Assembly (NCBI GenBank): GCA_963714015.1
Contig: OY970223.1
Coordinates: forward strand, 1,856,001-1,920,000
DNA length: 64,000 nt
Direction: 5' to 3'
Origin: Vulcanimicrobiota bacterium
GTDB lineage: Bacteria; Vulcanimicrobiota; Vulcanimicrobiia; Vulcanimicrobiales; Vulcanimicrobiaceae
Positions 39,790 through 44,587 of this stretch are shown in pieces (the stretch's first letter is position 1; the number at the start of each line of letters is the position of its first letter). Made by a program: the position numbers and the translations under genes. Under the pieces are notes generated by a model. That model searched no databases. It had not been told where the DNA came from and saw only the letters and a program-made list of their open reading frames with translations.

Positions 39790-40196
39790 GAGGCGCCGGA
39801 ACCGGCCTGCCGATCGTCTTCGTAGTGTTCGAAGGCCGGTCGCCCCTCGTCGATAACTAAACGGTTGACGATAGTAGTGTAGAGCGCCTCGCGATCGGCG
39901 AGCGGATCGATAACGAAGGCTTCGGTCGCTTTTTCGTCGCTTTGCGGATCGATCACGACGGTCACTCGCCGGCGCGCACAGACGTCGAGGCAGCTCGTGC
40001 TGATCGCCCGCACCCTACCCCAATACCCGTCTTCCTTGAGCCGTTTTTTGAGCCAGTCGCGCAAATGGAAGTCGCCGATCTCCGCAGCTTTGTCGGGATC
40101 TTCTTCGGGAATGCGTTCCTTGCAGCAACGCTCGCACACCAGCACGAGACCGGAATTCGTCCATTTGGGGGTTACGGGCTGCATGCTTTCTTTCAC
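39786..40196 (-). CDS. Thioredoxin-like [2Fe-2S]/DUF1636-type metal-binding protein
   Basis: VLVCERC...SCLDVC. Confidence 0.7.
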   Translation of the reverse strand: MKESMQPVTPKWTNSGLVLVCERCCKERIPEEDPDKAAEIGDFHLRDWLKKRLKEDGYWGRVRAISTSCLDVCARRRVTVVIDPQSDEKATEAFVIDPLADREALYTTIVNRLVIDEGRPAFEHYEDDRQAGSGAS

Positions 40197-40239
40197 TAGA
40201 AGTTGTGGAGGCCCGGCCGGGCGGGCCTCCGATTCCGCA

Positions 40240-40322
40240 AGCCGACGGCCGGATTCGAACCGGCGCGCTCTTTCGAGTCCTCATTACAAGTGAGGTGCGT
40301 TCAACCGCTCCGCCACGTCGGC
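40240..40322 (-). tRNA. tRNA-Thr(UGU) with long variable arm
   Basis: GCCGACG/CGTCGGC acceptor, CCTCA-CTTGTAA-TGAGG anticodon arm, 14-nt variable region, GCCGG-TTCGAAT-CCGGC T arm. Confidence 0.88.
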
Positions 40323-40557
40323 GTGAAGCCACGGTCTCTTACCGGGGGGGATAGATCATACCTCCCCGGCTCCGGAACGGATTTTCGCAGCCGCCGCGCC
40401 TAACGGCCATCTCGACCGCGATCGGAACGCGCGCAAAGTCGCGCCGTTCAGTCATCCGGCTGCGCACGAGATTGTGCGCATATTTAATAGGGCGATCCGT
40501 TTGAGTGACGCGCTGCAAAGTAAAAGAATTGCATTTTCGGGTCGAGAATTTAACGGC

Positions 40558-41025
40558 ATGGACAACGCGCAGCAACTACAGCTCCGGCGTGCCGGCCCGA
40601 GCGATCTGGAAACGCTGCTCCCGCTGGTTGGGGCTTACCGGGCGTTTTACGGGCAAGAATGTGATACCGGCAAAGAGCGCGGGTTCGTGGAGTCGCATCT
40701 GCGCGCCGGAACGTCGATCATTTACTTGGCCTGCAGTACCGAAGCGCACGGAGATATAGCGGGTTTCATTCAGTTGTTTGCGGCCTATTCGACCGTGCAT
40801 CTCGCGCCGTCGTGGATACTGGAAGACCTCTTTGTTACGCCCGCAGCTCGGGGGCGCGGTGTCGCCACGGCGCTCTTGGAACGTGCGCTGATGCATGCGC
40901 GCAGTAGCGGAGCATGCGCGATGTTTTTGGAGACCGCAATCGAGAACGTCACGGCGCAGCGCGTATACGAGCGAGCCGGCTGGGCGCGGGAGGGGCGTTT
41001 TCTTAAATACAACGCCCCACTTTAG
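40558..41025 (+). CDS. GNAT N-acetyltransferase
   Basis: LEDLFVTPAARGRGVA, N..AQRVYERAG. Confidence 0.93.
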   Translation: MDNAQQLQLRRAGPSDLETLLPLVGAYRAFYGQECDTGKERGFVESHLRAGTSIIYLACSTEAHGDIAGFIQLFAAYSTVHLAPSWILEDLFVTPAARGRGVATALLERALMHARSSGACAMFLETAIENVTAQRVYERAGWAREGRFLKYNAPL

Positions 41026-41036
41026 AACCGCGAGGG

Positions 41037-41522
41037 TTAGGTCGAGCCGCTGAGGCGCTCCGCCATCTGCAGGTGCGAACGCAGTACCGGCAGGCTTTCG
41101 CGCGCGAACATACGCAAGCTGGGGTTTCGGCCATTGTTCGCTTCTTGCTCGAAGAGCGCGATCGTCTTTTTGTGATCGGCGACTTCCTTTGTTAAATAGG
41201 CCGGACCGGGTTGCTCCGAAGGTTGCGGAGCTTGCGCGATCCCTTGATTGACCTGCGCGGTCATTCCGAGCTTTTGGGCAAGAGCGGCAAGCTGGGTGTT
41301 GTTTTTGCTGTGGTCGCCGATCATGCGGACTGCAAACTGGCCCGCGTTCGCGTCGGAACTGTGCTGCTCGGCTTTGCCTTCACGAACTTCTTCGGTCCCC
41401 GACATGGCGGCCTTTGTGACAAATGCAGAGTCGCTCGCGGCCATCGCGCTTGCGGCCGGAGCGGCCGTGACGAACGATGCGGCGGCGCAGAGCGCCCCTG
41501 CTACTAATAAGTGCGATTTCAT
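41037..41522 (-). CDS. DUF4142 family secreted protein
   Basis: FVTKAA, MIGDH, LP.LRSHLQMA. Confidence 0.85.
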   Translation of the reverse strand: MKSHLLVAGALCAAASFVTAAPAASAMAASDSAFVTKAAMSGTEEVREGKAEQHSSDANAGQFAVRMIGDHSKNNTQLAALAQKLGMTAQVNQGIAQAPQPSEQPGPAYLTKEVADHKKTIALFEQEANNGRNPSLRMFARESLPVLRSHLQMAERLSGST

Positions 41523-42129: not shown

Positions 42130-43290
42130 TTATTTGACGACGTGCCAGTCGACGATGCTGTAGGTGGTTCCGCTTGCGACGACCTCGAGCGTGCCGTCGC
42201 CGAAAGCGTTGACGCTGATTGTTGCAATCTGCGTGTTACCCGCGGCGACCGTCCCGGTAATGAACGCCGGCGAGGTCGGCTGTTGGCCGGAGTTGGTTTG
42301 CACGTTGAGCGTGTCGCCGTTCGCGAGCGTTGCATCCGCGATCGTGAGGTTGGTCAGGATGCCGGAGGCGAACGTAGCGCTGACCGGAAGCGAATACGAT
42401 CCCTTCGTCGTGCCGCCGGTTAGCGAGAACATCGGCGCGCTAACCGGGCACGTCGTGTTTTGGGCGCCGGTCGCGATTGAAAGGCTGCCGATCGGACCGA
42501 CATACGAAGAACCGTTATGCGTGGCGCTCCATGTGACGCTTCCGTCGTCGTTGACGGTCCGCGTTCCGGTTGCGGCCGTACCGGCCCAGCCGAACGTCAC
42601 GCCCAGCTTTTGATTGCCCGTTGCATTGAATCCGGCCGAATCACCGCAAAAGGTTTGCGAATTTCCCGAAAGGGCGCCAAGGCTGAGTTCACTATCCGAA
42701 TCGATCGTGCGCACGCCGTTGAGTCCGAGGTTTCCGCTCGAGGTGCGATCGAAACCATTCGCAGCGGCCGGGTACCCATATTGATCGAAATCCGCATCGG
42801 TGATCGTGTTCGTTTCACTGCGCACCGCAAGCGGCGAGCTGCTTCCGGACGCGTACAGCGTTACCGTTCGATAAACGGTCTCAGAATTTGAGCCCGTCGA
42901 CGTGAACAGACGAACTGCGTCTTCGGCCGGCTGAGTGCAGGCCCTATCGTAGAAAACGATGCGCTCGGTGGAACTGGGGTCGCCTTTTTTGTCGGGTGAG
43001 AAGAACTCGATGCCGTTGCTGCACTGGCCGTTCGCGGAAAGGCGCTGCACCGATTGGCCTTGGCGTGCGTGTTGAGCCAGCGGCGAAGCGGCGGATTCAT
43101 TATAATCGCTGAAATCCTTGATCGGGCTGCCGAGACTGTTGGCCGCATCGATCGAGCGGACGTCGCTGCTTTGCGTACTCTGACCGCCGCCGGAGGGCGG
43201 AAGCGACCCGGCGCTGCCGCTTCCGCCGCCGCACGCAGTAAGCATTGCTGCGCTCATGAAAGTCGAGAGGAAAACCAGATTCCGGTTCAT
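42130..43290 (-). CDS. Ser/Thr/Gly-rich hypothetical lipoprotein
   Basis: LTAC lipobox. Confidence 0.8.
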   Translation of the reverse strand: MNRNLVFLSTFMSAAMLTACGGGSGSAGSLPPSGGGQSTQSSDVRSIDAANSLGSPIKDFSDYNESAASPLAQHARQGQSVQRLSANGQCSNGIEFFSPDKKGDPSSTERIVFYDRACTQPAEDAVRLFTSTGSNSETVYRTVTLYASGSSSPLAVRSETNTITDADFDQYGYPAAANGFDRTSSGNLGLNGVRTIDSDSELSLGALSGNSQTFCGDSAGFNATGNQKLGVTFGWAGTAATGTRTVNDDGSVTWSATHNGSSYVGPIGSLSIATGAQNTTCPVSAPMFSLTGGTTKGSYSLPVSATFASGILTNLTIADATLANGDTLNVQTNSGQQPTSPAFITGTVAAGNTQIATISVNAFGDGTLEVVASGTTYSIVDWHVVK

Positions 43291-43481: not shown

Positions 43482-43569
43482 GGGTAGGTGGCCGAGTGGT
43501 TAAAGGCAACAGACTGTAAATCTGTCCAGCTAACGCTGTACGCTGGTTCGAATCCAGCCCTGCCCACCA
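43482..43569 (+). tRNA. tRNA-Tyr(GUA)
   Basis: Class II cloverleaf, ACAGA-CTGTAAA-TCTGT, encoded CCA. Confidence 0.97.
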
Positions 43570-44386: not shown

Positions 44387-44460
44387 GCGGGCGTTGCATA
44401 GTGGTAGTGCTTCTGCCTTCCAAGCAGACAGCGCGGGTTCGATTCCCGCCGCCCGCTCCA
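44387..44460 (+). tRNA. tRNA-Gly(UCC)
   Basis: TCTGC-CTTCCAA-GCAGA, encoded CCA. Confidence 0.97.
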
Positions 44461-44512: not shown

Positions 44513-44587
44513 GCCGTTGTAGCTCAGTGGTAGAGCATCTCCTTGGTAAGGAGAAGGCCACGGGTTCAATCCCCGTCAACGGCTCCA
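44513..44587 (+). tRNA. tRNA-Thr(GGU)
   Basis: TCTCC-TTGGTAA-GGAGA, encoded CCA. Confidence 0.97.

Follow-up and report, generated by a model that had tools for sequence, protein, structure and literature searches.

Can a transfer RNA (tRNA) with the body of a class II tRNA be the ordinary, and only, threonine carrier for its codon? The question is raised by the gene for a tRNA-Thr(UGU) on the minus strand of a 64,000-nucleotide stretch (the window) of contig OY970223.1, from a Vulcanimicrobiota bacterium (GCA_963714015.1). Long variable arms in bacteria are confined, according to the accessible text of PMC7609411, to the tRNAs for leucine, serine, tyrosine and selenocysteine, and a preliminary description of the locus had offered two readings, a housekeeping class II tRNA-Thr or a tRNA that inserts another amino acid at ACA codons. 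Our analysis makes it very probable that the gene encodes a housekeeping tRNA-Thr(UGU) built on a class II body, in a member of the Eremiobacterota (Vulcanimicrobiota). The tRNA would be charged with threonine by the single threonyl-tRNA synthetase (ThrRS) of the organism, and the charged form would read ACA, and possibly ACG by wobble, as threonine.

ARAGORN called six tRNAs in the window, among them tRNA-Thr(tgt) at 40240-40322 of the minus strand. The same gene scored 63.2 bits against Rfam family RF00005 (gathering score 29; E 2.3e-11), with a full cloverleaf; the model was matched over its whole length (positions 1-71), and the extra bases appear as an insertion in the variable region. 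The RNA reads GCCGACG-UG-GCGG-AGCGGUUGA-A-CGC-A-CCUCA-CUUGUAA-UGAGG-ACUCGAAAGAGCGC-GCCGG-UUCGAAU-CCGGC-CGUCGGC-U, with an acceptor stem of 7 bp, a T stem of 5 bp, U8 and G9. A 3-bp D stem with an unpaired 13:22 position is a defining feature of class II tRNAs. It is present here, together with a variable region of more than 10 nt that forms a stem-loop: the hairpin CUC-GAAA-GAG belongs to the minimum-energy fold, and the final C of the variable region can pair with G15. The length of 83 nt, the UGU anticodon, the D stem with G13/A22 and the 14-nt variable region with CTC-GAAA-GAG had all been described correctly (ARAGORN, RF00005, sequence), and the impression of a Tyr/Ser-like body is borne out by a D arm identical to that of the neighbouring tRNA-Tyr at 16-18 of 20 positions.

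The acceptor end is of threonine type. G1-C72, C2-G71, C3-G70 and U73 are common to this tRNA and the tRNA-Thr(GGU) encoded at 44513, as the preliminary description had pointed out, and the match with tRNA-Thr(CGU) of the same genome is closer still, since across the whole acceptor stem and T arm the two differ in a single T-loop base. Among the anticodon nucleotides G35 and U36 in particular are threonine determinants, and both are present in the loop CUUGUAA. Bacterial tRNA-Leu and tRNA-Tyr carry A73 and tRNA-Ser carries G73, and the anticodon of tRNA-Tyr is GUA. With U73 and UGU the window tRNA has neither the A73 of tRNA-Leu nor the A73 and GUA of tRNA-Tyr, and with U73, C2-G71 and a 14-nt arm it departs from tRNA-Ser (G73, G2-C71, arm of about 16-21 nt). 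The available part of PMC9976931 attributes threonine identity to acceptor-stem pairs and the "nucleotides of threonine anticodons", gives N73 little weight, and names C2-G71 as an antideterminant against E. coli seryl-tRNA synthetase (SerRS). G1-C72 and C2-G71 count as threonine identity pairs according to this review and a preprint (bioRxiv 10.64898/2026.05.03.722492). Thus the combination of G1-C72, C2-G71, G35, U36 and U73 fits ThrRS and speaks against SerRS, tyrosyl-tRNA synthetase (TyrRS) and leucyl-tRNA synthetase (LeuRS). The genome holds a single ThrRS gene (682.7 bits, above the curated cut-off).

The genome is a single contig of 3,562,638 bases for which ARAGORN called 47 tRNAs. Three of them are for threonine, with anticodons CGU (76 nt), UGU (83 nt) and GGU (75 nt); a second tRNA-Thr(UGU), whose presence the preliminary description had wished to see checked, is not among the 47. 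ACA occurs about 3,100 times in 2,203 long open reading frames (ORFs), that is 3.4 per thousand codons and 6.4% of threonine codons. Proteins from long ORFs were aligned against 400 kb each from two relatives whose own tRNA-Thr(UGU) is of the ordinary class I type, one of the same family (G006; 142 genes used) and one of the same class (G037; 161 genes). ACA was aligned with threonine at 46% of 128 positions in the first comparison and at 40% of 117 in the second, the corresponding figures being 52% and 48% for ACC, 53% and 49% for ACG, and 44% and 49% for ACU. Serine made up 12% and 9% at ACA positions compared with 7-10% at the other threonine codons, tyrosine was outside the six commonest residues at ACA positions, and leucine appeared in the comparison with G037 only, at 5%, similar to ACC (4%) and ACG (3%). 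Because ACA aligns with threonine about as often as ACC, ACG and ACU do, it is not reassigned but stands for threonine in the proteins. This outcome of the code inference that had been suggested for ACA excludes reassignment at the resolution of the alignment test, which does not reach down to low-level mischarging.

Conservation in relatives, also named beforehand as a check, points the same way. A DNA search of 41 related genomes matched the gene over its full length in three further genera of the family, at 94, 93 and 81% identity. Other relatives in that search have a class I tRNA-Thr(UGU) beside Tyr-Gly-Thr(GGU) (among them loci L005 and L007 from unpublished genomes, and likewise G006, G113 and G126). 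The flanks of the long-armed gene diverge exactly at base 1 and past base 73. Covariation was analysed in 34 distinct sequences picked for a GCCGACG start, and the invariance of the acceptor stem within this set follows from that selection. Standard pairs fill 97.4% of the cells as opposed to 86.2% in shuffles; 12 of the 23 pairs show changes on both sides, the observed covariation score was reached by none of 500 shuffles, and sliding the partners by 1-3 columns abolished the signal. Compensatory changes affect all five anticodon-stem pairs, the D-stem pair 12-23 occurs as UG (14), GC (9), UA (7) or CG (4), and for the middle pair of the variable arm 17 sequences have U-A and 16 have C-G. These alignments show purifying selection on the gene, with compensatory changes seen in each stem that varies, the variable arm among them.

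The long-armed form is common in the family, and it is not the only one. A named species-representative collection, scanned with one pattern restricted to the G.A type, gave 65 loci, 64 of them with a tRNA(tgt) of 81-90 nt. Fifty of those share the acceptor GCCGACG/CGUCGGC and U73; their titles name Eremiobacterota/Vulcanimicrobiota, Baltobacteraceae, Tumulicola, Tyrphobacter and Aquilonibacter, three name Acidiferrales or Acidobacteriaceae, and three give no taxon. (Candidatus Baltobacteraceae is Vulcanimicrobiaceae per NCBI.) A looser pattern (TTGTAA, a gap, the T loop) was then applied to the window genome and to the 94 genomes of the family that are at least 95% complete, with states assigned by match length. 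Of the 94, which include the unpublished G193 (long-armed) and G241 (short), 45 have a long-armed gene, 38 a short loop and four a loop of 11-12 nt; seven have no tRNA match, counting G016, whose sole match is not a tRNA. Nearly all surveyed genomes gave exactly one match. Outside the family, a long-armed gene was found in one of five genomes of f2 (G029), and in the sister family f3 matches of 30 nt, the class I length, were found in 23 of the 24 genomes with a match, among the matches listed.

Sixty family genes, 36 of them short-loop, were fetched and parsed. Twenty-four are canonical class I tRNAs (A9, a Watson-Crick 13:22 pair, a loop of 4-5 nt). Twelve combine a short loop (5-7 nt) with a 3-bp D stem and a 13:22 mismatch, which is C.C in nine and G.A in three; 11 of the 12 have G9, and a genus-mate of the window organism (G001) is among them. 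Three have unstructured, A/C-rich loops of 11-12 nt with the mismatch, and in 21 the arm is helical and 13-18 nt long. The 13:22 position of these 21 is without exception non-Watson-Crick (G.A 8, A.C 6, U.U 4, A.A 3). By contrast to this variety of bodies, G1-C72, C2-G71, C3-G70, U73 and the YUUGUAA loop are kept in all 60 genes, which were found with a pattern requiring TTGTAA.

ThrRS shows no counterpart to these differences. One match per genome was found in 65 family genomes, 70-83% identical to the window ThrRS, with two matches in one genome that has 7% contamination. No column of the ThrRS alignment separates carriers of long-armed from carriers of short tRNAs in the 30 genomes of a single-gene, midpoint-rooted tree made from tblastn matches (two genomes without a detected tRNA were unlabelled). 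On this tree the class labels need 10 changes, at least four of them forced by well-supported branches, and shuffled labels need about 10 too. A pair of genomes illustrates such a change: synteny between G166 (long arm) and G099 (short loop) extends across the gene, and their tRNAs differ essentially by a clean hairpin indel plus two D-loop bases.

Taking into account the graded forms, we propose that the class II body was built up on a threonine tRNA. The D arm and the variable region lie outside the threonine identity set and would thus be free to vary as long as the L shape is kept. The 13:22 pair would have opened first in the D stem, the variable loop would then have expanded, and the expanded loop would finally have become a hairpin. 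Afterwards the arm would many times have been gained, lost through clean hairpin indels, or exchanged by recombination. Since the same positional gene occurs in four forms across the family, the long arm most likely arose in place.

Several points weigh against our interpretation of a housekeeping tRNA-Thr with a home-grown arm. The order of steps is read from extant forms and not from a rooted species tree. The mosaic distribution comes mostly from metagenome-assembled genomes (MAGs); every state is also seen in single-contig genomes (long-armed in G000, G008, G017, G051 and G158, canonical in G006, mismatch with short loop in G011 and G126). Class II synthetases face the variable side of the tRNA, and a long arm may therefore clash with ThrRS. 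Finally, the ACA test used crude ORF calls and alignments of about 51-55% protein identity, in which minor mischarging is undetectable.

It is possible, though unlikely, that the tRNA is instead a one-step chimera whose D arm and variable arm were copied by recombination from the adjacent tRNA-Tyr or from a tRNA-Ser. The Tyr and Thr(UGU) genes are neighbours, which together with the D-arm identity noted above would suit such an event, and their variable arms are alike: each is a short hairpin, usually with a GAAA loop, and 3-4 unpaired bases come after it. In Acetobacteraceae the closest in-genome relative of a long-armed UGU tRNA is tRNA-Tyr (71% over the full length). Moreover, recombination breakpoints within the tRNA gene are indicated by G080 (long arm), whose gene agrees with the canonical G393 and G113 in its last 27 nt and in the DNA downstream, whereas its 5' part and upstream DNA are unrelated to theirs, as expected after recombination within the gene. 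However, the D arms of tRNA-Ser(UGA) and tRNA-Ser(CGA) in the window genome are about as similar (16-17 of 20 positions each), and the long-armed genes display several D-stem flavours (G.A, A.C, A.A, U.U). Nor does a chimera predict the intermediates, namely the 12 genes with a mismatched D stem and a 5-7-nt loop and the three with unstructured 11-12-nt loops. We therefore prefer stepwise origin in place.

Similar tRNAs occur in other lineages. Long-armed UGU tRNAs with G1-C72 and C2-G71 were found outside the family at eight loci of Acetobacteraceae, Roseomonas and Rhodospirillaceae (A73), in a Thermoleophilia MAG (U73) and in a Tepidisphaeraceae MAG of the Planctomycetota (U73, 20-nt arm). 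The alphaproteobacterial type has the acceptor GCUGGGG, A73 and an encoded CCA (L180, 1501-1586, from the Acetobacteraceae genome G403; L181 from Roseomonas sp. KE0001, G402; L021, L024, L026, L043, L051 and L065). In Roseomonas sp. KE0001 and in the Thermoleophilia and Tepidisphaeraceae MAGs the long-armed UGU tRNA is the sole match to the loose pattern; the complete genome G403 has a canonical tRNA-Thr(UGU) in addition.

UGU tRNAs of other kinds were also encountered. Serine-bodied examples are present in a Planctomycetota MAG (L025, 1487-1574, minus strand) and a Rhodobacteraceae MAG (L038, 1487-1576, minus strand); both have a GGAGG... acceptor, G73, a long arm and an encoded CCA, and UGU is one base away from the serine anticodon UGA. 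In the Rhodobacteraceae genome G406 the serine-bodied UGU tRNA is the only match to the loose pattern. The two loci are candidates for insertion of serine at ACA codons, or for mistranslation. Long-armed UGU tRNAs with a leucine-like D arm and A73 come from Woeseiaceae (L020), Paceibacterota (L037), Saccharibacteria (L054) and Dehalococcoidia (L062).

Another account accepts a true tRNA-Thr but holds that its long arm is kept by selection for a job of its own, as a handle or shield towards a modification enzyme, a processing factor, or a toxin or nuclease that attacks tRNAs; we consider it unlikely. It draws on the finding that the arm, once present, stays helical with a GNRA-type loop and covaries, on the occurrence of long-armed UGU tRNAs with threonine-type acceptors in at least three other lineages, and on the fact that the UGU isoacceptor alone is affected: a search of 65 family genomes brought up no long-armed tRNA with a CGU or GGU anticodon (seven CGU matches of 53-57 nt were left unexamined). 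On the other hand, sister species do not always share the same state, the arm has in places been cleanly lost, and no partner gene for it was identified. The fast evolution that an arms race would bring was looked for and rejected: long-armed tRNA-Thr(UGU) genes evolve no faster than their neighbours, with a pairwise identity of 0.91 compared with 0.92 for Tyr and 0.93 for Gly.

In a broader, adaptive version, which we hold to be quite unlikely, the arm would have been gained repeatedly, and on the UGU isoacceptor only, in Eremiobacterota, Acetobacteraceae, Thermoleophilia and Planctomycetota, and would alter what the sole ACA decoder is seen by. It may, for example, hide the tRNA from a cleaving or modifying toxin, or recruit a dedicated modification enzyme. 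If this were true, the family would preserve a living series in which a class I tRNA turns class II under selection. What keeps the adaptive version alive is that UGU alone is affected and that the long arm turns up again in other phyla. Nevertheless, given the rarity of ACA among threonine codons, relaxed constraint may suffice and could explain why the UGU isoacceptor alone has drifted.

A reading in which SerRS, TyrRS or LeuRS accepts the tRNA on account of its class II body, so that ACA is wholly or partly read as serine, tyrosine or leucine, appears highly improbable. The resemblance to class II tRNAs, including the Tyr-like D arm, is its starting point, bacterial SerRS and LeuRS do not read the anticodon, and other phyla do possess UGU tRNAs with a Ser body (G73) or of Leu-like type (A73). 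Yet U73 tells against LeuRS and TyrRS as well as SerRS, C2-G71 against SerRS and the anticodon against TyrRS, and the arm of 14 nt compares with roughly 18-21 nt in the tRNA-Ser genes of this genome. The tRNA is the sole ACA decoder, and the ACA positions show no excess of serine, tyrosine or leucine. Of the two readings first offered, the insertion of another amino acid at ACA is not supported, and the housekeeping tRNA-Thr is upheld by its being the sole UGU tRNA, by its threonine-type elements, the alignment of ACA with threonine, the covariation and the single ThrRS. It is barely credible, finally, that the gene is a copy in decay or without function, or that its anticodon loop reflects an error of assembly or sequencing (a misread GUA had been envisaged): the promoter scan is empty and no CCA is encoded, but this is the only UGU tRNA of a one-contig genome with about 3,100 ACA codons in its long ORFs, the loop is YUUGUAA in 60 of 60 family genes, albeit found with a TTGTAA-requiring pattern, all variable stems carry compensatory changes, and conservation ends exactly at the gene ends.

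The features of the locus are collected in the table below. The placing of the Tyr, Gly and Thr(GGU) genes 3-4 kb away was accurate in the preliminary description, which did not give the minus strand of tRNA-Thr(UGU). The distance to tRNA-Tyr is about 3 kb in the window, and in relatives tRNA-Thr(UGU) lies 0.1-2 kb from Tyr-Gly-Thr(GGU). The hairpin that begins 9 nt past the tRNA 3' end is possibly a terminator or processing hairpin; it was not called by the terminator scan, and a sigma-70 promoter scan of 39800-40800 returned no site. A search for sequencing runs gave no RNA run and one DNA run with 0.37 of the words, whose contigs cover 39900-40190 and not the tRNA.

Features of the tRNA-Thr(UGU) locus (window positions)
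Feature	Position	Strand	Basis
G+C-rich hairpin, 9 bp, without U run, 9 nt past tRNA 3' end	40207..40230	-	sequence
tRNA-Thr(UGU) gene, 83 nt, class II architecture, no encoded CCA	40240..40322	-	ARAGORN, Rfam RF00005, sequence
Acceptor stem 3' strand CGUCGGC and discriminator U73	40240..40247	-	sequence
T arm GCCGG-UUCGAAU-CCGGC	40248..40264	-	sequence; same as tRNA-Thr(CGU) bar one loop base
Variable arm A-CUC-GAAA-GAG-CGC, 14 nt: 3-bp stem and GNRA-type tetraloop	40265..40278	-	sequence, minimum-energy fold
Anticodon arm CCUCA-CUUGUAA-UGAGG	40279..40295	-	sequence
Anticodon UGU (plus-strand letters aca)	40286..40288	-	ARAGORN, anticodon at position 35; sequence
D arm: 3-bp stem GCG/CGC, G13.A22 mismatch, loop AGCGGUUGA	40297..40313	-	sequence
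Acceptor stem 5' strand GCCGACG (G1, C2, C3 of Thr type)	40316..40322	-	sequence; identical in same-genome tRNA-Thr(CGU)
tRNA-Tyr(GUA), first gene of Tyr-Gly-Thr(GGU) cluster	43482..43569	+	ARAGORN
tRNA-Gly(UCC)	44387..44460	+	ARAGORN
tRNA-Thr(GGU), ordinary class I	44513..44587	+	ARAGORN, sequence

Three ORFs lie between tRNA-Thr(UGU) and tRNA-Tyr: a divergent GNAT acetyltransferase gene that begins 150 nt upstream of the tRNA (40474-41025, plus strand), a DUF4142 gene (41037-41522, minus strand) and an ORF for a 386-residue protein without a Pfam match (42130-43290, minus strand). Elsewhere in the genome (C1:996713-996793, outside the window), ARAGORN made an odd 81-nt call of tRNA-Ala(cgc) beside a normal 76-nt tRNA-Ala(cgc); the odd one is perhaps a false positive, or else a tRNA-like element of unusual type.

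The family surveys brought up some further loci. Genome G089 has, besides a long-armed tRNA-Thr(UGU), an 80-nt tRNA-like sequence (L135, G089:C3:325750-325960) that ARAGORN names Gln(ttg) and that has a threonine-like acceptor, an enlarged anticodon loop with UUGUAA, and an encoded CCA. A UGU-pattern match at G128:C103:21933-21974 resembles a tRNA-Tyr with U32, the loop UUGUAAA and a Tyr-type arm, indicating that the loops of Tyr and Thr(UGU) are close to each other. In G001 (contig C36) the 3' part of a tRNA-Thr(CGU), from anticodon loop to CCA, stands alone at about 1500-1560 of L017. It lacks a 5' half, was not called by ARAGORN, and seems to be what an insertion into a tRNA gene left behind. 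Five long-arm candidates with other threonine anticodons (three CGU, two GGU) were rejected as they are not tRNAs per ARAGORN, and the GGU-pattern matches were mostly D-loop-to-T-loop spans of other tRNAs.

No long-armed tRNA-Thr was described in the open-access papers and bioRxiv preprints searched; subscription journals could hold one. The Codetta screen (PMC8629427) mentions neither ACA nor Eremiobacterota/Vulcanimicrobiota. What we describe would be a threonine tRNA, the sole reader of its codon, that has class II architecture in about half of a bacterial family. Its main value is that a single positional gene displays in nature the gradation between class I and class II, by which the origin of the class II body becomes testable. 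It is predicted that ThrRS tolerates the long arm, a property that would be useful for orthogonal tRNA engineering. Annotation pipelines and genetic-code screens that compare body type with anticodon may flag such genes as mis-assigned or recoding. Since Roseomonas sp. KE0001, whose title reads as that of an isolate, carries a similar tRNA, a culturable test system may exist.

How does the window tRNA compare with known systems? With the canonical bacterial tRNA-Thr(UGU) it shares the YUUGUAA loop, G1-C72, C2-G71, its place beside Tyr-Gly-Thr(GGU), and a positional counterpart in relatives; the arrangement in E. coli is thrU-tyrU-glyT-thrT. It differs in having a 3-bp D stem, G13.A22 and G9 where the canonical form has a 4-bp stem and A9, and a helical arm of 14 nt instead of a loop of 4-5 nt. 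The bacterial class II tRNAs for tyrosine, serine and leucine resemble it in the long arm, the 3-bp D stem, the non-Watson-Crick 13:22 position and a D loop of the AGYGGUUGA type, but not in the threonine-type acceptor, U73 and the anticodon, and its arm is shorter than that of tRNA-Ser of the same genome. The reverse case is known as well, a short-armed member of a normally long-armed family; there, too, both architectures serve one amino acid and a single synthetase. It has been shown biochemically and involves a LeuRS with a helper domain, whereas the present case is drawn from genome sequences and no change in ThrRS tracks the architecture.

Long arms combined with anticodons other than those for leucine, serine or tyrosine are also found in the nematode nev-tRNAs and the bacterial allo-tRNAs. 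Those molecules, as characterized in the accessible portions of PMC3333845 and PMC5389517, have leucine or serine identity or 8/4 or 9/3 branches, and they are extra tRNAs that often mistranslate. By contrast, tRNA-Thr(UGU) has the 7/5 branch (7-bp acceptor stem, 5-bp T stem), and hence not the 8/4 or 9/3 acceptor/T branch by which allo-tRNAs are defined in the available part of PMC5389517; its identity elements are those for threonine, and no other tRNA of the genome decodes ACA. A parallel in decoding is the tRNA(UGU) of Acidimicrobiales, likewise an unusual UGU tRNA and sole ACA reader, for which the part of the preprint available (bioRxiv 10.64898/2026.05.03.722492) ties the loss of G1:C72 to a change of ACA to aspartate. 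There G1:C72 is lost and ACA aligns with aspartate; in the window organism G1-C72 is kept and ACA aligns with threonine.

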